A DNA stretch of 64,000 nt, from NCBI GenBank assembly GCA_026395685.1, contig JAPLYG010000009.1:81519-145518 (forward strand), in the 5' to 3' direction. Under the pieces are notes generated by a model that ran no database searches, had not been told where the DNA came from, and was given only the letters and a program-made list of their open reading frames with translations. The stretch is from Candidatus Parcubacteria bacterium. Lineage in GTDB: Bacteria; Patescibacteriota; Patescibacteriia; CAIXNZ01. Positions 3,812 to 63,240 of the stretch are shown here, piece after piece (positions within the stretch are counted from its first letter, which is position 1; each line of letters starts with the position of its first letter). The position numbers were made by a program, and so were the translations under genes.

Positions 3812-3935
3812 ATGCTAAAAGGATTAATAGGAAGAAAAGGAAAAAATGAACAAATGATTATAGGATTAAATGATAAAAGGAAAACTTCTCCTCTTATCCT
3901 ATTCTTCCTATTCTTCTTCTATTTCAATATCCTAT

Positions 3936-5996
3936 TTAAAATTTAACTTCAAAAACCTTATCGCCATCCAGAACAATTTCATTATTATAATTGGTGTTAA
4001 ACCACTCATTTTCCGGCTCTGCAGGCACTGCTGATTTAATATTTTTACCAAATTTTAGGTCCAAAGTCAAATCAGGCAAAACACCCGGCTGCTTCTGAAC
4101 CAGCAGATTATAGGTGTTGGCGCGTATTTGTTCTTTAATCCTGGCAGGCAGCTTATATTCAAAGGTCAAAGTGCCTGTTTCATGCGGTTCAATGGAAATA
4201 AAAGCGCCAAAAAAAGCTTTATTAAATTCACTACCCGCTTCCACCTGGCCAGCCTGGCCCAAAGGATCTTTGATTTTGTCATTTTCCATCGCACCGCTTG
4301 AACTGACCAATTCACTGCCTGAGGGCACATAAACTCTGGTATATGTTCTTAACCTTGTAGACTTCCAGGTAAAATCCGCATTATTCTGATAAACAATTTC
4401 AGCTTTTGCGATTAAATCGCCATTGCGCTGAGCCAAAGAATATTTTATCGTGCGTTTAACAAACTGATCTGTTTTCAAGGCTGCCATATTACTGTCAACG
4501 ACAAATAAGTAGTCGCCTTCAGTCTGTTTAACATCCCCTGCCCAACCGCGAGCTAAAACCATTTTTTGAATTTCAGGATCTTTCACATAAATTAAAATCT
4601 GCTTTTGATTCATGAATTCAAAGGCCACATCCAGCAAATCCGGCACCTGGCTCATGGGCACAGTCATAAGCTTAACTTTAATCTGGTCAGCCAGTTCTTT
4701 GATAATCCCTTTTCTTTGAGAAATCGGAATATCTAATTCCTGATAAAGCTTGCCGACCATTAATTCCAGCTGTTCCTGGTAATTGCTGTCAGTAAAGACC
4801 ATATTGCCGGCAACAACCGGACCTGTTATTTTTAAAAGTCCGCCTAAAATCTCCGGGGTCATGGCAATGACGCCTGATAAATTTTCCTCATAGGGTAAAA
4901 CATCCTTTATTTCCACGCCCTTTTCACCGATAATTTTTTTGCCCTGTTTTTTCAGCTCAATAATCAGCTTATTTTCCTTATCATACATTTCCAGAGATTT
5001 TAAAGCAGTGGTCGGAAAATCAGGCGCCCAATTTATATCGCGCATAGACCAGTCTTTTTGTTCCAAATATTTGGCGATCTGCCAGGGAGTCGGCTCTTTG
5101 AGTATGGCCTGAGTTGAACGGTCAAGGTTATAGATATTATCAGTATCAAAACTGATTAAATCGCCGTCCTTTAACTTTAAAATGCCGTAAGTGCCGATGA
5201 ATCCGCCGGTCGGCCTTAACTCGGAATTATTCTGAAGTAAAAATAAATATGATTTTGTTTCGTCAAAGCCGGCAATTTTGGGAATTATTCGCAATAAAGG
5301 CAAAGCATTGTCAATCATCATTTTTGCTTTTGGCAAATTATCTCTTATGGGCTCGAATTTTTCCCGCAAAGGGCCCACCAGCTTATCTGACGGAATTTCA
5401 GCAATGGCCTTATCCGCCTCATCAATTCGGTCCTGCAGCTCATACAACATATCTTCCGAAGCAACTATTTTTTCTAAAATCTGACGTTTTTGCTGGGCGG
5501 AAAGATTTTCATAAGTGATGGATTCATTTTTCAATGGTGCCGTAATATCCTCAATCAGCAAAACAACCTTTTCACCGCTATCAGTCAAATTTATTCCTGC
5601 GATTAATAATTCATCAACGGCCTTAAATTGAATTTCAAAATACGGCAGATTCTTTATTATTTTAACTTTATCCAATAAACCCCGGGCGTCCGCCAATTTG
5701 CCATGAGCAGTATTAATTAATTTGGCGCCGGATTTAAAATCACGGTTAATAATCACGTGCAAAGACTGCTCCAGATCATCTTTGGCGGATAAAGACAAAT
5801 TATATGCCTGTTTAATATTGTTATAATAGACTAATCCTAAAACGCCCAAACCGATTATTGCCAAAATAATCAACACAATCAAAATCTTAAGGCCAAAAAA
5901 TAAAGCCTTTTTGTATTTTGAATTTTTAGGAGTTTCCTTAATCTGGGTAAAATCAGGAGAATTTAAACCTACTAAATTGTTGTTTGAGTCTGACAT
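3936..5996 (-). CDS. DUF4012-like membrane-anchored protein (686 aa)
   Basis: N-terminal TM anchor (ALFFGLKILIVLIILAIIGLGVLGLVYY) followed by a large extracytoplasmic domain. Its size, architecture and position next to glycosyltransferases resemble the DUF4012 proteins common in CPR cell-envelope clusters. The family assignment is an inference. Confidence 0.5.
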   Translation of the reverse strand: MSDSNNNLVGLNSPDFTQIKETPKNSKYKKALFFGLKILIVLIILAIIGLGVLGLVYYNNIKQAYNLSLSAKDDLEQSLHVIINRDFKSGAKLINTAHGKLADARGLLDKVKIIKNLPYFEIQFKAVDELLIAGINLTDSGEKVVLLIEDITAPLKNESITYENLSAQQKRQILEKIVASEDMLYELQDRIDEADKAIAEIPSDKLVGPLREKFEPIRDNLPKAKMMIDNALPLLRIIPKIAGFDETKSYLFLLQNNSELRPTGGFIGTYGILKLKDGDLISFDTDNIYNLDRSTQAILKEPTPWQIAKYLEQKDWSMRDINWAPDFPTTALKSLEMYDKENKLIIELKKQGKKIIGEKGVEIKDVLPYEENLSGVIAMTPEILGGLLKITGPVVAGNMVFTDSNYQEQLELMVGKLYQELDIPISQRKGIIKELADQIKVKLMTVPMSQVPDLLDVAFEFMNQKQILIYVKDPEIQKMVLARGWAGDVKQTEGDYLFVVDSNMAALKTDQFVKRTIKYSLAQRNGDLIAKAEIVYQNNADFTWKSTRLRTYTRVYVPSGSELVSSSGAMENDKIKDPLGQAGQVEAGSEFNKAFFGAFISIEPHETGTLTFEYKLPARIKEQIRANTYNLLVQKQPGVLPDLTLDLKFGKNIKSAVPAEPENEWFNTNYNNEIVLDGDKVFEVKF

Positions 5997-6790: not shown

Positions 6791-6882
6791 ATGTTACTAA
6801 TATACTAATCAAAGACTAATCAGCTAATTAGTTCAGAATATTACGAATTAGTAGATTAGTAACCAATTCGTAAATTAGTATC

Positions 6883-11325: not shown

Positions 11326-11936
11326 TTAGAAGTTGTAAATCAAAGTTGCCTTATACACATTAGAGTCCATGGCAGATTCGCCTTGTGGCTCAAATGCGTA
11401 GTAGTAGTTCAACTTCAGGGTCATCTTGTCATTGAACGGAATGGTCAGGCTCGGACCAACCTGGTACGAACGAGAGCCTTCATCAACCTGATCAAGGTAA
11501 TAATAATTGCGGTTATCCAGACCAACCCGCCCAAATCCGATCGGATAAGACAGGTTGTTGTAGATAAAGAGCGCGTCAAAGCCGGCATAGTAGTAAAGCC
11601 CGTTGGCAAATACCCACTTTCCGGATTTCAGCGCAGAATCAACCCCTAAAAACCATCCGCGGTCCAGCTCTTCAGCCTCAAAACCATAACCAGCATAACC
11701 AGCCAGGCTGTACTGGTCATTGAACTTGTAGCCCAAGCCCAATGAGGTATAAGGCGCAGAACTGGACATCAGGTTGATAAAACACATATTACCCAACAAA
11801 TCGACTCGCGCTCCGAGATTACGATTGGCATTGAGCGACACGCCCATCTGGGGCTTGTCCTCAACAGCCTGCGCTGAAAACGCGCTAAACATAATAACCA
11901 GAGCAACGAGCGCCGTAAAAAATCTTTTTTCCATCG
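11326..11936 (-). CDS. Outer-membrane-like beta-barrel protein (OmpW/MipA-like architecture), secreted
   Basis: Start placed at MEKRFFTALVALVIMFSAFSAQA (AGGAG 6 nt upstream). The signal peptide is followed by alternating hydrophobic beta-strand patterns. The protein ends in ...ATLIYNF with a terminal Phe, the classic OMP C-terminal signature. The gene is in the high-GC island. Confidence 0.5.
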
Positions 11937-15308: not shown

Positions 15309-15414
15309 AGTATTAAGGAAGGCTTAACCACAGATTTATTCTCACAGATTGCACAGATTTTTATCAATGTTATCTGTGAATTAAATCAGTGGTTCCGTTA
15401 TACATATTATACCA

Positions 15415-19609: not shown

Positions 19610-20230
19610 TTAATTTTCGCGATAATCGATTTGGAATATTGATTGGTCATTTAGTTCATAATTGCGGAGGGAACTGTATTTGTATTCGCTAAGATCTTTA
19701 ACTATACCGTGTTTATATGGGTTTTTGTGAATGTAATCTAACTTCTCCTGAAATTTTTTGTCAGAATAGACATTAAAATCGTAAAATTTTGATTGCCAAA
19801 GACGATATTGCAAATTTCTTTTGTGCGGTGTCTGGTCTCTCGGGATTGCGCGCAGCATCTGCTCTGTTAACCCCATCCCCCTTCGGGTGGAGCGGAGCAT
19901 CGGCTCTGCGCCTGGGTCAGCTTGAGACAAGAGCAGATGCTCTTGTCTTCCCGAACTTGCGTATAAATCAATAATTCTGCGCGCAGCGGCTCCTTTAATC
20001 CCCTGCATAATTTTTGAAATGGTCAATTTTTCATCCTCAAAATAAATCAAACAATGCACATGATCGGGTAAAATTACATAACCATAAATTTTCAAACCAT
20101 ATTTCTGACGATAAAAATCAAATTCCTCCAATAAAATTTTACAGCAATCTTCATCCTTAAATATCGGCCGTCTTATATTCGTCACAAACGTCACGAAATG
20201 AATATCACCCGGTTGATTAATCCTAATCAT
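19610..20230 (-). CDS. Y1 (HUH) transposase family protein, IS200/RAYT-like
   Basis: HUH motif in LPDHVHCLI. The C-terminal WQSKFYDFNVYSD...YIHKNPYKHGIV...YKYSS matches the IS200-like/RAYT catalytic-Tyr region. A GC-rich in-frame insert lies at about 19825-19965. The gene sits between pheS and pheT. Confidence 0.75.
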   Translation of the reverse strand: MIRINQPGDIHFVTFVTNIRRPIFKDEDCCKILLEEFDFYRQKYGLKIYGYVILPDHVHCLIYFEDEKLTISKIMQGIKGAAARRIIDLYASSGRQEHLLLSQADPGAEPMLRSTRRGMGLTEQMLRAIPRDQTPHKRNLQYRLWQSKFYDFNVYSDKKFQEKLDYIHKNPYKHGIVKDLSEYKYSSLRNYELNDQSIFQIDYREN

Positions 20231-23239: not shown

Positions 23240-23275
23240 AACCCCGACCCTAACCGGCCGGGTTTTTTTATATGT
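23240..23275 (+). terminator. Intrinsic terminator after the sigma-like gene
   Basis: aaaCCCCGaccctaaCCGGCCGGGttttttt is a GC hairpin followed by a 7-nt T-run. Confidence 0.5.
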
Positions 23276-23362
23276 GATGGCTTAACCACGAAAATCATAT
23301 CACTAAAAAACACGAAATATATATTTCGTGTAATTTCGTGCAACATTTCGTGGTTCCGATAT

Positions 23363-24235
23363 CTACTTCAGCTCAATCTTTTCAAACTTAATTCCGCTAC
23401 CAAACCACTCCTCCCCCAACTTCTGGTAATGCGGCGACAAATCAGTCACCTGAAACTTAATATTGTCACCCTGAGGTTCTCGAAGGGTGACATCGTCGGC
23501 GTCATGCTTCGAGATCCTCAGCATGACATTCTCGTTTTTATCCAATTTTGTTTCAATCTCCGGATGCCGTGTCAAATAATCAGCCAAAGAATCAGCCACA
23601 ATTTCACCTGAATGCAAAACTTTTGTTCTTGAACTCATAATCCCCTGAATTTCCTTAAACAGAATCGGATAATGCGTACAGCCTAAAATCAAAGTATCAA
23701 CTTTTGCCAGTTTCAACGGCTGTAAATAAACTCGCAAAATCCTCTTGGCCACATCTGTTTTTTGCCAGCCTTCTTCCACCAAAGGCACCAAAAGCGGACA
23801 CGCCTGCTGTAAAACTTCCAGCTTATTATTAATTTTTCCTATTTCGATTTCATAAGCTTTGGAATTAACAGTACCTTTGGTGCCAATAACACCGATTTTC
23901 TTTTTGGCTACTTTCACTGCTTCTTCAACTACCGGCCTGATCACGCCTAATACTCGCCTATCAGCAAAATGCTGAGGCAACCAGTTTTGCTGTATCTTAG
24001 GCAAAGCTTCAGCTGACGCAGTATTACAGGCAATAATTACCAACTGGCAATCCTGCTTAAATAAAAAATCAACTGCCTGTTCCGTAAAATTATAGATTAC
24101 CTCCCGGGAGCGGTTGCCATATGGCGTCCGCGCATTGTCTCCCAGGTAAATGTAATCGTATTGAGGCAGTTTTTTGATGATTTCTTTAAGAATAATTAAG
24201 CCTCCGAGTCCGGAGTCAAAAATTCCGATCTTCAT
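23363..24235 (-). CDS. murI: Glutamate racemase
   Basis: MKIGIFDSGLGGL...IACNTAS...LGCTHYP motifs. The start is taken at MKIGIF; the ORF track starts 8 codons upstream. The C-terminus is extended and contains the in-frame palindromic element (…DVTLREPQGDNIKF…). Confidence 0.85.
   Translation of the reverse strand: MKIGIFDSGLGGLIILKEIIKKLPQYDYIYLGDNARTPYGNRSREVIYNFTEQAVDFLFKQDCQLVIIACNTASAEALPKIQQNWLPQHFADRRVLGVIRPVVEEAVKVAKKKIGVIGTKGTVNSKAYEIEIGKINNKLEVLQQACPLLVPLVEEGWQKTDVAKRILRVYLQPLKLAKVDTLILGCTHYPILFKEIQGIMSSRTKVLHSGEIVADSLADYLTRHPEIETKLDKNENVMLRISKHDADDVTLREPQGDNIKFQVTDLSPHYQKLGEEWFGSGIKFEKIELK
23465..23491. repeat. 27-bp GC-rich palindromic element (copy 2), in frame inside the murI 3' region
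   Basis: gtcaccctgaggttctcgaagggtgac differs from the pheT copy at one base and encodes the same VTLREPQGD. Confidence 0.8.
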
Positions 24236-24244
24236 AATATTCAA

Positions 24245-24332
24245 GGCGAAAACGCCCAATTTCGGACTGACAGGCTTTAGCCTGTTATATTAACACACTG
24301 AAGTGTGTCAGTCCGTTCCTTAGCGTTTTCGC
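24245..24332 (-). ncRNA. Nested multi-stem structured element immediately upstream of the murI start (candidate regulatory leader or REP-like element)
   Basis: The outer stem is ggcgaaaacgcc/ggcgttttcgc. An inner stem (ggactgaca/tgtcagtcc) encloses two hairpins (caggctttagcctg and acacactgaagtgtgt). On the murI mRNA strand the structure ends 9 nt before the AUG. Confidence 0.3.
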
Positions 24333-24374: not shown

Positions 24375-25507
24375 TTTATTTAATTAATCCCAATAATTCC
24401 TTCACCTTCTCGTCCACCAGCGCCTGCGACTTGGCCTCCACATTCAACCGAATCAAGGGTTCCGTATTTGACTTGCGCAAATTAAAGCGCCAGTCAGCGT
24501 ATTCAACGGAAACGCCATCAATATGTTCGACCTTGCCGTCTGAATATTTCTCTTCAGCATTCTTTAAAACAACATCGGGGTCATTTACCGCCCGGCTTAT
24601 TGATCAAAGCTTGGCCTTTAAATTTTTTGACAGTATCTTCCACCGCCCAGGTTAAACGGGGGTCATAAATAATTTTCTTAGATTCTTTGCCGAATTTTTC
24701 CAGCATTATCTGGGCTAAAATCGCAGTCAGATAATAGCCGTCAACAAAATCTCCGTTTTCATCAAAAATAAAACAGCGGTCAGCATCAGCATCCCAGGCC
24801 ACACCCAAATCAGCCTTTTCTGATTTGACTAATGCCTCAGTTTCTATACGTCTTTCAAGAATCATGGGGTCAGGCCGTCCTTTGGGAAAATTTCCATTGG
24901 GCTCAAAATCCAAAGGCACGATTTCAATCGGTAAGAATTCTAAAATCTTATTTACTGCCACCCCTGCCATGCCAAAATTGGCATTGGCCACAATTTTCAT
25001 GGGCTTGATTGCCTTGGGATCAATAAAACTCAGACAATGCTTGACATAATCAGCTAAAATTTCTTTTTTAGTTACTTCCCCCTTTTCCGGTTCAATTATT
25101 TGTTCCTCTTTCAAAGCCTGATCACGCATTTCCATAATGCCGGTATCACCGGAAATAGCAATCGCCTTTTCCCTGACAAATTTTATTCCGTTGTATTCTT
25201 TGGGATTGTGAGAAGCGGAAATGGTCATACCCCCGCTGTAACCGTATTTTGCCACACTGAAATAAAGCATGTCCGTAGAAATTGTGCCGATATCAATAAC
25301 ATCAATTCCAGCATCTGTCAGCCCCTTGGCTGCTGATTGCCATAAACTGGGCGAAGACAAACGTACGTCTTTACCTAAGGCAATCGGACCTTTAGGTTTT
25401 ACAAATTTGACGTATGCCTGAGCGATTTTATAAACCGCATCTTCATCAATATCTGTCGGATAAATACCGCGCACGTCATAAGCCTTGAATATTGAAGGGT
25501 TGATCAT
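24375..25507 (-). pseudogene. Phosphoglucomutase/phosphomannomutase (alpha-D-phosphohexomutase) with a broken frame. It is either a pseudogene or an assembly frameshift.
   Basis: The 308-aa ORF (24581-25507) carries the active-site TISASHNPKEYNGIKF and metal-binding WDADADRCFIF and ends ...QALINKPGGK*. A different frame (24375-24595) encodes VNDPDVVLKNAEEKYSDGKVEHIDGVSVEYADWRFNLRKSNTEPLIRLNVEA..., the typical PMM/PGM C-terminal domain 4. The GEMSGH-type sugar-binding loop is not seen. Confidence 0.6.
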
Positions 25508-25606
25508 ATTTTTTAAGTCTAAAGTATAAAGTATAAAGTCTAAAGTTAGGACTTCAGACTTTCCCGCGGAGCGGGAAGCCGCTTCGCGGCTCGGGCTTCA
25601 ATTTAA

Positions 25607-26788
25607 TTAATTTTCAAGTTTTAATTCTTTTTTTAAAACCGACAGCAAAGTCCCCAATCCCCACAAAACAATAGCCAGTTTAACAAACCAGCCTAAAAGA
25701 GGAATTGAACATATCAAATAGATAATTAATAAACCAATTATCATTGACCAGACTGCAGCCGGAGCATTTTGTCGGAAGATTTTCTTTAACACTTTTTCAC
25801 CGATATAAACGCCGATAAAAATACGGCACAGATAAATGGCTGTCAGATATAAGCCGCCTAAAATCATACTAAGCGGAAAACCGATAAATGTCACGGCTAA
25901 AATCATTAATGCAATCGGAATAACGATTAGATAAACAAAACCTTTTAAGATATTCAAAATAATATTTTTCTCTAATTCCATTTTTATCTTGCCGACAAAA
26001 TTCTTAAAAATAAATACCATTACCAAGCCGACAACAATTGCACCCAATAAACCCGCCAGCCAGAAAATTAATCTCAGCATATAGTTCGGTGCAGCCGGCT
26101 GAGGTGTTTCAATTTTTAATTGCGTGAATTTTTCTTCGCCTTTAATCTGTGCCCCGGCCTGTATTTCAGCCTGAAAAGGCGCGGTATATTCAAAATTACC
26201 GTTAATAATCGCGCTTGGCAGTAAAGTCAGAGAGCCTTCAGCGTCAATTCCAATATAGGCACTGCCTGTAATTTCATTGTTAATTAACAGATTACCTGCG
26301 GCGCAATATAAATTTTTCTTAATTTTACCGAATTCATCTACATTGCCGCCTAAGATAATGGCGCTTTTACCGATTTCAGCATCCTTATTTATAGTAATAG
26401 TTCCACCCAAGGCTGTCAGGTTACCTTCAATTTTGCCGTTAATTGTGACTGTCGCACCGGCTACTCTTAAATCCCCCTTAATTACTGAATTAATAACCAC
26501 GCTCGAACCAGCGACCATTAAATCCCCGTCAATCGGACCGGAAACAACCACATTGGCACCCGCCAAATAGACATCGTCTTTCATCTGGCTATTAAGATTG
26601 ATGTTTTGTCCGCTAGCCCAATATACATTTTCAAACACCTGGTCTGTTGATAAAAACAAGTTAATATTCTGGGGCTGATCAGCGCCTTTTCCCTGACAAT
26701 TTGTACTGGGCGCCATTAATATTAACACCGAAACAATCAAGAGCACTAAAATATTGAGTTTTTTACCTAATTTTTGCCTAAATTTCAT
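25607..26788 (-). CDS. Bactofilin-like beta-helix repeat protein fused to a polytopic membrane domain
   Basis: Repetitive V.G.I.GDL.VAG..V.ING turns (VSGPIDGDLMVAGSSVVINSVIKGDLRVAGATVTINGKIEGNL...) resemble bactofilin (DUF583). There is an N-terminal signal/TM and a C-terminal block of four or more TM helices. Start placed at MKFRQKLGKK, which has a GGAG upstream. Confidence 0.55.
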   Translation of the reverse strand: MKFRQKLGKKLNILVLLIVSVLILMAPSTNCQGKGADQPQNINLFLSTDQVFENVYWASGQNINLNSQMKDDVYLAGANVVVSGPIDGDLMVAGSSVVINSVIKGDLRVAGATVTINGKIEGNLTALGGTITINKDAEIGKSAIILGGNVDEFGKIKKNLYCAAGNLLINNEITGSAYIGIDAEGSLTLLPSAIINGNFEYTAPFQAEIQAGAQIKGEEKFTQLKIETPQPAAPNYMLRLIFWLAGLLGAIVVGLVMVFIFKNFVGKIKMELEKNIILNILKGFVYLIVIPIALMILAVTFIGFPLSMILGGLYLTAIYLCRIFIGVYIGEKVLKKIFRQNAPAAVWSMIIGLLIIYLICSIPLLGWFVKLAIVLWGLGTLLSVLKKELKLEN

Positions 26789-26846
26789 AATAGGCTTCTC
26801 CTTTTTTAGCACTCCTATGACTAGGGGTGGATATTAGATTGAATAA

Positions 26847-27548: not shown

Positions 27549-27641
27549 AATTACTAATTGCTAATTAGCTACTAATCTATAATTATCAATATTCATAGAT
27601 TAGTAGAATATTCGCATATTAGCCTGCCTGACGCCTGCCTG

Positions 27642-28553
27642 ATGGTAGGCAGGGCAGACAGGTATCCTATGTACCAACAAATCGATTCCAATAAGAGAAA
27701 GACCGCCATACTAATGGTATTGTTTATTATTTTTGTATTAGGGTTGGGCTGGCTTTTCAGCTATTTAAGTGAGATGGGCTCTGGGGGCATTTTTTTAGCG
27801 GCAATTATTTCTCTGGCCATGGCAGCAACCAGCTATTATGCTGGCGACAAGATCGCCTTAACAACTGCCGGCGCCAAAGAAATAGCCAAAGAGGATAATC
27901 CCTATGTTTATCGTTTGGTGGAAAATTTATGCATCACTGCCGGGTTGCCAATACCCAAGGTATATATTATTTATGATCCCAATATTAATGCCTTTGCTAC
28001 TGGCCGCGATCCGCAGCATGCTTCGCTTGCCGTTACCCAGGGCGCAATTAATAAATTAGAAAATTTAGAATTGGAAGGCGTTATTGCCCATGAATTAGCG
28101 CATATTAAAAATTATGACATCCGCTTCATGATGGTAATAATCGTCCTGGTCGGCATTATTGCCCTGCTCGCAGACTGGCTAATGCACGGCTTTTTATGGA
28201 ATAGAAGCAACCGGGATAAAGGGAATCTGGGCATAATATTTTTAATCGCCGGCATCGCGCTGGCCATCCTTTCCCCGCTAATCGCTAAAATTATTCAATT
28301 AGCAATTTCACGCCGACGGGAATATTTAGCTGATGCCACAGGATCGCTTTTAACCCGTTACCCTCAGGGCTTAGCTAATGCTTTGGAAAAAATCGGGCAG
28401 GAAAATATTAACCCGCTAATCCGCGCTAATAATGCAACCGCTCATCTATATATAGCCAACCCCTTTGGCCAGACAAGAAAACTATTTTCCAATTTATTTT
28501 CTACTCATCCCCCGCTGGAGGATCGTATCGCCCAGTTGAGATCCATGGCTTAA
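27642..28553 (+). CDS. htpX: Zn-dependent protease HtpX (M48 family)
   Basis: HELAHIKNYD (HExxH), downstream Glu, and four TM helices. The true start may be the MYQQID Met at 27669. Confidence 0.85.
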   Translation: MVGRADRYPMYQQIDSNKRKTAILMVLFIIFVLGLGWLFSYLSEMGSGGIFLAAIISLAMAATSYYAGDKIALTTAGAKEIAKEDNPYVYRLVENLCITAGLPIPKVYIIYDPNINAFATGRDPQHASLAVTQGAINKLENLELEGVIAHELAHIKNYDIRFMMVIIVLVGIIALLADWLMHGFLWNRSNRDKGNLGIIFLIAGIALAILSPLIAKIIQLAISRRREYLADATGSLLTRYPQGLANALEKIGQENINPLIRANNATAHLYIANPFGQTRKLFSNLFSTHPPLEDRIAQLRSMA

Positions 28554-33486: not shown

Positions 33487-33586
33487 GAAACAAACTGCAT
33501 GTTAGCGCTGACAATAAATTATATTAACTCCCGAATTTAATACTTAATTATACCCCTTAGCGCGGGGTCTTTTTATTTAGTATGCT

Positions 33587-34228: not shown

Positions 34229-34239
34229 TACAAAGAACA

Positions 34240-34270
34240 AAAAAAGAACCCCGCAGGGTTCTTTTTTTAT
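34240..34270. terminator. Bidirectional intrinsic terminator between mpg (+) and the peptidase gene (-)
   Basis: acaaaaaaaGAACCCcgcaGGGTTCttttttt has a 6-bp GC stem flanked by A- and T-runs. Confidence 0.7.
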
Positions 34271-34289
34271 CTTATCCGATACTTCCAAA

Positions 34290-38438: not shown

Positions 38439-38476
38439 ACGGGGCTCCGCTCCGAAGCTTCGGTGCGGAGCCCCGT
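38439..38476. repeat. 38-nt near-perfect GC-rich palindrome (REP-like hairpin) in the intergenic region
   Basis: acggggctccgcTccgaagcttcggTgcggagccccgt has only two central mismatches. It shares the GCGGAGC/GCTCCGC core with the hairpins at 25561-25597 and 19880-19900. Confidence 0.6.
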
Positions 38477-38711
38477 TCCCACCACTATATTAAAAAAATC
38501 CCTTTATTTCGACGGAATAACACCCAATCAACAATTATCAATCATCAAACAATAACTAAATTATAATACCGAATCATATAAACAAATTAGAATTTAGCAT
38601 TTTGATATTTGAATTTGTTTGATGATTGTAGTTTGATTATTGATTATTTAAAAAATAAAATTACACAACCTCATACAACTTCATAAAACATCATATAACC
38701 TCATACAACTT

Positions 38712-41383: not shown

Positions 41384-41531
41384 TATGATAAATTATTGAT
41401 TTTATTGATAATATGTATTAATAATAGCCTATTAACCCAAACTTTTCAACAAAATAAAAAGACAGAAATCCCTAAATTTCCGTCTTTCTCACATAACTTT
41501 AAACTTTGCACTTTAAACTTTACACTTCAAG

Positions 41532-41603
41532 TGCCCCCGCTAGGAATCGAACCTAGATCACAAGATCCGCAATCTTGTGTTCTATCCATTGAACTACGAG
41601 GAC
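41532..41603 (-). tRNA. tRNA-Arg (anticodon GCG)
   Basis: The reverse strand reads GUCCUCGUAGUUCAAUGGAUAGAACACAAGAUUGCGGAUCUUGUGAUCUAGGUUCGAUUCCUAGCGGGGGCA. It folds into a cloverleaf with a 7-bp acceptor stem (two G·U pairs), D stem GUUC/GAAC, anticodon stem CAAGA/UCUUG with loop UUGCGGA, and T arm CUAGG-UUCGAUU-CCUAG. No CCA is encoded. Confidence 0.7.
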
Positions 41604-41858
41604 TTATTTAATTTGTGTGTACTCCATTGCCCGCCAGGGGCGGGCAGGCTGCCTTTGGCGGAAACTACGAGGACCTACTAAGTTGAAAATTCAAAGTGCA
41701 AAGTTTAAAGTTACAGTTAGTAGTTTAAATTTTTGGAATATATTTTTATTTTACGATACCCAATTAGCGTAACGAATATCCAGACCGAATAACGAAAAAC
41801 TATTTTAAAAGGGAGACAAAAATATCTCCCTCTCAAGTATAGAATATTTCTAAAAATT

Positions 41859-62457: not shown

Positions 62458-62634
62458 ACTTAAAAAATTAATTGCTTAGTTATACGTTTATCGGTTTCCT
62501 GCCTTCGCCCGTATGAGACGGGCTACGGCAGACAAGCGTTTTTCGTTACGTCAATAGTTTAACGAAAAACGTAACGATCATCGATACCGAATAACGATAA
62601 ACCGATTTTATTTTCTAATTATTTTTGCCATCAA

Positions 62635-63240
62635 TTATATTTCATCAATTAATCCGGGATACTTTGTATAAATATATTGATAATTTGCCGCATCAAAAAT
62701 GTTATGCTTTGCGGGATTATTATAAAGATATCGCATATGTTGATTAAAATCATCATAATTGCGAATATAATGATCGTGAAGTGATTTTTGCCAATGAAAT
62801 TTTACATACAAAGTTTGATTTAATCCATATTTTGCCACAAATTGACGGCGCGTTGTAATCAAATATTCATAATGCTTTTCGATTATCTCTTCATAAATTT
62901 TATATTCCTCCCCCAATTGAAGGAGCGATTTGCAAATCGCTCCTTCGTCGACATAACCTAAGATAAAATTTATATTCCTGGTATAGTGTCTTTTGATAAA
63001 TTGCATTATTTTCGATAAATCCATCGCTTCATACGGCAAAAACATTAAATGAAAATGATCCAATAATATTACAAACGAATATAAATCAAATTTGTGCCTT
63101 TTTTTCGCCAATTTTAAAATTTCAATAAACAACTCGCAAAAAATCGACTCCTTAAAATATTCAACCCGGTTATCGGCAACACCTGTCACAAAATAAGTCG
63201 CCCCTTCAAAATATATCCGTTTTTGCGCTCCTTTATGCAT
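62635..63240 (-). CDS. Y1 (HUH) transposase family protein, IS200/RAYT-like (second copy)
   Basis: HUH motif in LLDHFHLMF. The C-terminal WQKSLHDHYIRNYDDFNQHMRYLYNNPAKHNI...YQYI is conserved with the 19610-20230 protein. A perfect 28-bp palindrome lies at 62919-62946 in frame. Confidence 0.75.
   Translation of the reverse strand: MHKGAQKRIYFEGATYFVTGVADNRVEYFKESIFCELFIEILKLAKKRHKFDLYSFVILLDHFHLMFLPYEAMDLSKIMQFIKRHYTRNINFILGYVDEGAICKSLLQLGEEYKIYEEIIEKHYEYLITTRRQFVAKYGLNQTLYVKFHWQKSLHDHYIRNYDDFNQHMRYLYNNPAKHNIFDAANYQYIYTKYPGLIDEI
62919..62946. repeat. Perfect 28-bp palindrome inside the second Y1 transposase gene
   Basis: gaaggagcgatttgcaaatcgctccttc equals its own reverse complement and encodes EGAICKSLL in frame. 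Confidence 0.8.

Follow-up and report, generated by a model that had tools for sequence, protein, structure and literature searches.

The window, by which we mean the whole 64,000-nt stretch of Parcubacteria DNA, is about 40% G+C and carries most of its genes on the minus strand. A bactofilin-like gene (25607-26812) and a phosphoglucomutase (PGM) gene (24581-25507), both on the minus strand, are separated by 99 nt, from the stop of the former to the start of the latter. This spacer holds a G+C-rich element, H1, made of two stem-loops with 3-nt loops, the one (25561-25577) abutting the other (25577-25591). The original prediction called attention to the sequence from 25561 to 25597, which is present as quoted, and described it as nested hairpins; instead, the two stem-loops stand in tandem. 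The fold of H1 is unremarkable for its own G+C content (z = -1.4). The only part of the spacer flagged by a terminator scan is the AT-rich hairpin that follows H1 on the transcribed strand (Table 1). The PGM gene (24378-25507) looks broken: its 308-aa ORF holds domains I and II only, and a stretch resembling domain IV (..FNLRKSNTEPLIRLNVEAK..) comes after it in a different frame. Its orthologue in a related contig, L063, is intact at 447 aa. The window's gene is either a pseudogene or the result of an assembly error.

Five other hairpins were listed along with H1: H2, H4, H5, and H6 in other spacers and H3 within Y1a, one of two genes related to Y1 transposases. All five exist close to where they had been placed, and all six hairpins fold as stem-loops. 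For comparison, we drew on L001 (another Parcubacteria MAG) and on the loci or contigs L061, L063-L065, L067, and L069-L071. The related loci were gathered mostly around Y1 genes, so estimates from them of hairpin density and of association with Y1 are biased. L063, a contig of 332 kb, is syntenic with the window from 17 to 28 kb, and orthologous proteins of the two are 53-81% identical, which calibrates their divergence.

Table 1. Locations of hairpins, palindromes, and associated genes (coordinates are those of the window unless a contig is named)
Feature	Location	Strand	Description
H1, tandem G+C double hairpin	25561-25591		TTCCCGC-GGA-GCGGGAA / AGCCGC-TTC-GCGGCT
Extended H1 element	25551-25599		46 of 49 nt identical to L001 (blastn 93.9%); includes flanking ACTTCAGACTT word
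AT-rich hairpin of AAGTCT/AAAGT words	25535-25562	-	Directly 3' of H1 on transcribed strand
H2, 38-nt near-perfect palindrome	38439-38476		Upstream of 1360-aa C1-protease gene; singleton; dG -42, z -5.1
H3 region, in-frame hairpin array inside Y1a	19839-19960	-	GACAAGAGCA-TC-TGCTCTTGTC; GCGCAGAGC-CGAT-GCTCCGC; ACAGAGCAGATGCTGCGCGC
H4, hairpin of CCTGCC/GGCAGG words	27622-27663		Singleton; z -3.4
H5, 33-nt tandem hairpin	41630-41662		CCCGCC-AGG-GGCGGG, CAGG, CTGCC-TTT-GGCGG-A
Pseudo-tRNA-Arg 5' fragment carrying H5	41604-41675	-	Diverged; covers roughly the first 30 nt of the tRNA
H6	62499-62531		CTGCC-TTC-GCCCGT-ATGAG-ACGGGC-TAC-GGCAG; singleton; z -3.2
Y1a, RAYT-family gene between pheS and pheT	19610-20230	-	NF047646, 124.5 bits (cutoff 80)
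Y1b, second RAYT-family gene	62635-63240	-	NF047646, 86.5 bits (cutoff 80)
Perfect palindrome inside Y1b	62919-62946		28 nt, GAAGGAGCGATTTG/CAAATCGCTCCTTC, encodes EGAICKSLL
Y1b palindrome in orthologues	L067 10304-10325; L069 10301-10322; L071 2672-2693
GTAG-headed inverted doublets (REPIN-like), L063	9901-9966, 10279-10343
GTAG-headed inverted doublets, L065	1467-1526, 8727-8785, 10280-10355, 12394-12469
GTAG-headed inverted doublets, L061	9848-9954, 12425-12484, 12850-12915
E2, 65-nt palindromic inverted doublet	23464-23528		In frame in murI (VMLRISKHDADDVTLREPQGD)
E2 half unit	18962-18989		Matches 23464-23491 at 27 of 28 nt; read in frame within pheT as VTLREPQGDS
AT-rich word-palindrome spacers, examples	3812-3935, 6791-6882, 15309-15414, 23280-23362, 24260-24320, 27549-27620, 38500-38700
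Canonical terminators	23243-23262, 33552-33568, 34236-34271		Flagged by terminator scan

Structure of the spacers

Perfect G+C hairpins are far more common in the window than expected from block shuffles (17 observed, 2.9 +/- 1.9 expected). Tandem G+C double hairpins number eight in 199 kb of Parcubacteria DNA, as compared to 0.05 in block shuffles, and every one of the eight belongs to the H1 or the H5 class described below. More generally, 17 of the window's 28 spacers fold with z <= -3. The unstructured spacers lie mostly between divergent genes, and those between co-directional or convergent genes are mostly strongly structured. A search of Rfam turned up only tRNAs at gathering score in the window, and in E-value mode no match overlapped any hairpin.

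Most co-directional spacers are long AT-rich palindromes, in which one arm repeats a short word (ACTAAT, CACAGAT, CACGAAA, AGGAA, and ATCAA among them) and the other arm repeats its complement. Two of these spacers have common ends, GGCTTAACCAC...GTGGTTCCG, and differ in their inner words. The orthologous spacers of L063 follow the same design with other words.

The heptamer GCGGAGC and the singleton hairpins

It had been proposed that the hairpins share a GCGGAGC core. The heptamer occurs seven times in the window, where shuffles give 4.8 +/- 2.3 and 21 of 100 shuffles do as well. At this chance frequency it is not a meaningful core, and we discarded it as such. We likewise rejected the six hairpins as a single family, as their similarity to one another is no better than that of shuffled sequences: in Smith-Waterman comparisons on both strands, no pair survives the 15 tests (minimum p = 0.033). 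The proposed population of dispersed REP-like elements stands in part: small palindromic elements are indeed scattered through this lineage, but the six hairpins do not belong together as a family. Copies of H1 exist in two other genomes and copies of H5 on three other contigs. H2, H4, and H6 are singletons: neither about 200 kb of related DNA nor viral contigs yielded a relative. They are unique local palindromes in a genome whose co-directional spacers are mostly strongly structured.

H2 lies just upstream of TGcTATAAT on the minus strand. H6 is about 100 nt downstream of the stop of Y1b and has GTAG in its internal loop (minus strand). H4, with GTAG in its loop, ends 5 nt before the true ATG (27669) of an M48 peptidase gene. 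The longest ORF of that gene begins at 27642, inside the hairpin, but alignment with L063 puts the start at 27669, so H4 is fully intergenic. The called start of murI in L063 is, similarly, the ATG directly before an inserted hairpin module. Both cases (M48 in the window, murI in L063) warn annotators that hairpins create spurious start codons and N-terminal extensions.

Recurrence of H1

A close match to the extended H1 element (Table 1) is found in L001, where the double hairpin (3946-3976) is flanked by two convergent genes, one hypothetical and one for an ABC transporter. A third copy, TCCCGC-CTA-GCGGGA-T-GCCGC-TTC-GCGGC, lies in L063 between NIF3 and pheT (11656-11686). Both contexts differ from that in the window, and the orthologous bactofilin-PGM spacer of L063 lacks H1, having instead an unrelated palindrome of CCGAAT words. 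Three loci of the class were seen, with one copy in the 64 kb of the window. No cleanly alignable empty site, from which its insertion target and boundaries could be read, was found for H1. H1 cannot be taken as a terminator because it lacks a T-run and its orientation relative to transcription is inconsistent. T-runs are likewise absent from H2, H4, H5, and H6, and the terminator scan passed over H1, H2, and H4 even though it flagged canonical sites.

A 20-mer from H1, sought in one genome per prokaryotic species (the GTDB representatives, among them L001's genome), gave 19 matches, 18 of them chance occurrences in high-G+C genomes; the single exact match among Parcubacteria is that of L001. 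Viral contigs yielded no match to the H1 class. Concatenated six-frame translations of H1 and H5, very short as queries, found no protein at E <= 10. The same 20-mer matched 41 metagenome contigs, all of 58-71% G+C, and we treated these matches as coincidence. About 35 of them, from soil or rhizosphere (among L020-L060), carry an intergenic repeat of about 90 nt whose end, cccTTCCCGCGGAGCGGGAAGCC followed by tcgtg, includes the 20-mer and happens to be the hairpin of H1. The repeat adjoins housekeeping genes, sometimes in inverted pairs (L055), with no TnpB, Y1, or transposase gene nearby and no Rfam match. It is probably an unrelated REP-like family of a G+C-rich bacterium.

Filled and empty sites of the H5 class

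Members of the H5 class have the form CCCGCC-NNN-GGCGGG-TCCGCC-TTT-GGCGGA. Besides the one copy in the 64-kb window, the class is represented in L063 (one copy, 4586-4615), L069 (four), and the viral contig L070 (one). Five independent loci of the class were seen. A covariance model of the class, run unfiltered on the window, recovered H5 as the sole significant match (42.3 bits), the next best being H1 (13.7 bits, E = 0.45), and found no new copies in the other loci. The stems are nearly invariant; what varies is the 3-nt loop of one hairpin, which across modules is AGG, TGA, GGA, or CTA. The one compensatory pair observed was equaled in 125 of 500 shuffles, and since the stems hardly vary, covariation is too sparse to separate structural from sequence constraint.

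At five sites, a filled sequence can be compared with an empty counterpart. H5 itself interrupts a pseudo-tRNA-Arg fragment immediately upstream of an intact tRNA-Arg gene (41531-41603): relative to that gene, 33 nt are inserted at the D-loop position, GTAGTT^CAATGG. In L069, fragments of tRNA-Glu compared with the intact gene show an insert of 30 nt between TTTT and CAT in the anticodon loop. Single 15-nt hairpin units headed by CCTG appear at other tRNA positions. These fragments also show an insert of 19 nt (CCTG + TCCGCC-TCT-GGCGGA) after GGTTAG in the D region and one of 30 nt (CCTG + CCCGCC...GGCGGG) in the T loop. In murI of L063, finally, a 30-nt module falls exactly between the ATG and the second codon, adding ten codons in frame. 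Here the filled site reads aatattATG[30 nt]AAAATAGGAATTTTTGA and the window aatattATGAAGATCGGAATTTTTGA (the start region is also read ATGAAGATCGGAATTTTTGA); the alignment with a single gap is our own reading, MAFFT having preferred a different, gappier solution. None of the five sites shows a target-site duplication, and TT^CA is common to three. The comparisons show that members of the H5 class are precise insertions of 30 or 33 nt without duplication of the target. Since both tRNA cases are pseudo-fragments beside an intact gene, duplication or recombination at tRNA genes could have contributed to them.

The tRNA-Glu region of L069 (7950-8900) is laid out as an intact tRNA-Glu(UUC) gene followed by three tandem units of 146 nt, 98-100% identical, each including a 3' half of the tRNA with a 30-nt tandem hairpin in the anticodon loop. 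Two hairpin inserts are found in a separate 5' half, and the T-loop insert is present in one copy. In the window, the tRNA-Arg gene, the pseudo-fragment, and H5 are enclosed by the two arms (41494-41527 and 41680-41713) of a 34-nt inverted repeat, 88% complementary and composed of AAAGT/ACTTT words. Three minus-strand genes (41681, 62004, and 63921) have related arrays of words upstream, with AAATTTTTGGAATATAT after them. In L070 (IMG/VR UViG_3300037264_002598, classed as viral), at 4886-5040, a tandem hairpin of the H5 class lies upstream of a gene and adjoins an E2-like CTCGAAGGGTGA and a GCAAAGTTAACAGTTAGCA stretch that resembles the word arrays of the window. From the presence of a module on this contig, phages may carry such elements.

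The Y1 genes and their in-gene modules

Two Y1 genes in the window were predicted to be RAYT-like, and, judged by their proteins, both are genuine members of the RAYT family. Each has the HUH motif, the catalytic tyrosine, and the RAYT-specific C-terminal motif, and each scores above the curated cutoff (Table 1). The two are 28% identical. The best match in PDB is 4ER8, E. coli TnpAREP, with the HUH and Tyr motifs aligned (LPDHVHC with LPEHMHC, LDYIHKNP with VDYIYINP). H62, H64, and Y171 are invariant across the Y1b family. Y1a is tightly packed between its neighbors (gaps of 11 and 9 nt), and Y1b has an upstream gap of 0 nt. Neither gene is flanked by REPs in the window; H6 lies on one side only of Y1b, and the orthologues of Y1b lie in other gene contexts with no H6-like neighbor. 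Y1a occupies the same place between pheS and pheT in the window, L063, and L064, and is 70% identical to its orthologue in L063, similar to the identity of its neighbors.

Aligned with TnpAREP, Y1a shows about 50 inserted residues. The DNA that encodes them in L063 is a module of some 64 nt, GGGTAG-CCAAGAGCATCTGCTCTTGG-...-GCGCAGAGCAGATGCTCTGCGC-TACCC, made up of two inverted GTAG-headed units. The module has a second copy (97% identity over 66 nt) about 35 nt before the start codon of the gene, and the similarity ends at the outer stem. L065 has three further copies of the GTAG-headed module within 20 kb. The module of L061 is a different one, with TTTTAT loops, and is found within one of its Y1 genes and around both of them. 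In-gene modules of the relatives begin with GGGTAG and end with CTACCC. In these relatives, then, a REPIN-like doublet is translated in frame inside the RAYT gene and recurs extragenically within a few kb; across genomes, its stems differ and its loops are kept. H3, the insert in the window's Y1a, had been taken as REP-like. This view is borne out, in that H3 is a degenerate, expanded version of the GTAG-headed REPIN module of its orthologues, its GCGGAGC corresponding to a stem GCAGAGC with one base changed. It has no extragenic copy in the 64-kb window.

The in-gene modules of the Y1 genes comprise the GTAG-headed doublet and GAAGGAGCGATTTGCAAATCGCTCCTTC. The Y1b palindrome is identical in nucleotides in two orthologues whose proteins are only about 70% identical, which points to selection on the nucleic acid. 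In L067, a double change at the center, from TG.CA to TA.TA, leaves the palindrome perfect. No copy was found elsewhere in our data, including the viral contigs. Perhaps the palindrome is a candidate binding site of the enzyme that it helps encode. The cognate modules of the RAYTs are sequences different from the intergenic hairpins, and no transposase has been tied to the modules of H1 and H5.

Origin of the modules

Modules of the H1 and H5 classes share an architecture: about 30 nt, with two abutting G+C stems of 5-7 bp, each closed by a loop of 3 nt. Near-identical modules at nonorthologous sites, in genomes whose housekeeping proteins are 53-81% identical, together with the clean boundaries of the inserts, argue for modules that copy and insert rather than for terminators that evolved locally. 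We think it somewhat probable that H1 is a copy of a low-copy class of miniature palindromic modules spread across related Parcubacteria, with H5 a sister class of the same architecture, both having spread by copy-and-insert as single-stranded hairpins and being co-transcribed within spacers. The hairpins would be inserted into exposed T-rich loops, and a nuclease of the HUH/Y1 type, for example the resident RAYTs, could perform the chemistry. Modules within same-strand spacers would then be transcribed along with their neighbors and form stable stem-loops, which may protect or process the ends of mRNA.

Of the alternatives, a local origin fares best, though we consider it rather unlikely. Each hairpin would have arisen in place as structural RNA (a terminator without a U-tract, a 3'-end stabilizer, or a processing site), with no common origin or mobility. 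The idea agrees with the strong structure of co-directional and convergent spacers in the window (as opposed to divergent ones), with the wholly different hairpins found at the same places in the orthologous spacers of L063, and with the lack of relatives of H2, H4, and H6. It does not account for the near-identity over 17-49 nt between H1 or H5 and copies in other contexts, where proteins are about 70% identical, nor for copies that lie either way round relative to transcription, within tRNA fragments, or directly behind a start codon. The absence of T-runs and the silence of the terminator scan also speak against it.

The original prediction named the two RAYTs as the obvious candidates for mobilizing the hairpins. 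On this model there is one REP family with a common core, moved as in classical REP/RAYT systems. This we find improbable. To be sure, both Y1 proteins score above the cutoff that NCBIfam sets for REP-associated tyrosine transposases, with their HUH and Tyr motifs retained, genuine RAYT-REPIN pairs exist in relatives, H6 has GTAG and lies near Y1b, and insertion without duplication beside a short T-rich target fits the chemistry of Y1 enzymes (PMC3333891, PMC6006769). However, the core heptamer is at chance frequency, the six hairpins lack mutual similarity, and the modules cognate to the RAYTs differ from them in sequence and have no extragenic copy in 64 kb. Moreover, neither Y1 gene is flanked by REPs, H6 is absent beside the orthologues of Y1b, and the modules have far fewer copies than REPs, of which a genome typically holds more than 100 (PMC2817692).

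The modules might instead be operators that function as double-stranded DNA, to which a conserved dimeric protein binds at two neighboring 6-3-6 inverted repeats. Invariant half-sites around a variable 3-nt spacer (AGG, TGA, GGA, CTA) are what one would expect of such sites, and several copies do lie 20-90 nt upstream of a gene start. But others lie between convergent genes (L001), in tRNA pseudo-fragments, or in frame after a start codon, and no common downstream gene or regulator is evident, so that this explanation too has little probability. Still less probable is that integrative elements targeting tRNA genes left the modules behind as scars or as remnants of attachment sites: two H5-class loci do involve duplicated tRNA fragments beside an intact tRNA (in L069 as three tandem units of 146 nt, each with the 3' half of tRNA-Glu) and one copy is on a viral contig, but the murI copy of L063 and all copies of H1 have no tRNA nearby, no integrase is seen, and the inserts, only 19-33 nt, are internal to the tRNA fragment and do not border it.

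Comparison with known elements

REP-like elements and RAYTs have been studied mainly in Proteobacteria, and in the literature that we searched no paper links RAYT or REPIN with Patescibacteria. REPs are typically present in more than 100 near-identical copies per genome (PMC2817692) and have an unpaired GTAG or CGTC tag at one end (PMC3733652), and the RAYT gene is classically flanked by two cognate REPs in inverted orientation (PMC2817692). H1 falls outside this definition on all three counts. H1 and H5 occur about once per 50 kb (by a count from loci biased toward Y1 genes), not in hundreds per genome. H1, H2, and H5 lack GTAG and CGTC, and H4 and H6 have GTAG only in loops. Y1a and Y1b have no flanking REPs; the genes of relatives do have, on their upstream side, a copy of the in-gene module. 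Furthermore, the units of H1 and H5 are only 15 nt, in hairpins that are direct tandem repeats, and the cognate module of the RAYT lies in frame inside its gene. Other features are shared. H1, as two hairpins of 15-17 nt, falls in the range of the 20-40-bp imperfect palindromes of REPs; the elements are short, G+C-rich, extragenic, and often paired; they are found in co-directional spacers (H1, H2, H4, H5, and H6) or convergent ones (the copy in L001), as REPs prefer; the host genome encodes RAYTs with HUH and Tyr; and GTAG-headed doublets accompany the RAYT gene in relatives. H1 and H5 look like a new variant of REP-like miniature palindromic elements.

Insertion of the modules would resemble the chemistry of IS200/IS605 elements and RAYTs (PMC3333891, PMC6006769, PMC8266576). 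Like IS200/IS605, which move by the single-strand "peel and paste" of a Y1 HUH enzyme, the modules are inserted precisely and without duplication beside a short target (here TT^CA), with hairpins as substrates and loops prone to be single-stranded as targets. They differ in having no internal transposase gene and no distinct left and right ends and in being about 30 nt rather than 0.6-2 kb. They are unlike MITEs, which are defined by terminal inverted repeats and target-site duplication; the five filled sites, with inserts of 19-33 nt, show no duplication. Intrinsic (Rho-independent) terminators are also G+C stem-loops downstream of genes, but H1, H2, H4, H5, and H6 have no T-run, and H1 and H5 are found in either orientation relative to transcription.

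Rickettsia palindromic elements are small palindromes, 100-150 bp in length, that can sit in frame in protein-coding genes. So described, they resemble the in-frame module of the H5 class after the ATG of murI in L063, E2 in murI and pheT, and the modules of the RAYT genes. They differ in length and belong to another lineage.

One may go further and suppose that these are a kind of mobile DNA of Patescibacteria not described before: 15-nt G+C hairpin units, usually as 30-nt tandem pairs, inserted precisely and without duplication at TT^CA in loops prone to be single-stranded (the D, anticodon, and T loops of tRNA, and the starts of genes) and moved by domesticated Y1 nucleases of the RAYT type that carry recognition palindromes in their own reading frames. 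This larger scheme is speculative, and we hold it unlikely as a whole. If truly mobile, the tandem hairpins would be among the smallest insertion elements known, and they would insert peptides in frame and disrupt tRNA genes in tiny, streamlined genomes. The conservation of palindromes inside RAYT genes at the level of nucleotides suggests that the enzyme's substrate may be embedded in its own gene, a clue to the regulation or retention of domesticated Y1 nucleases.

The E2 palindrome

The only small palindrome repeated within the window is E2, with the unit GTCACCCTGAGGYTCTCGAAGGGTGAC, present as a full doublet in murI and a half unit in pheT (Table 1). It resembles what we take to be a widespread repeat, "SLSKH / LRQAQGD," of many small hypothetical ORFs; searching the literature by its peptide or DNA words found nothing relevant. 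E2 is also found in L001 (588-653), L065 (near 8850 and 9040), L070 (4923-4940), and L063 (5320-5384), and the copy in murI is common to the window and its orthologue in L063.
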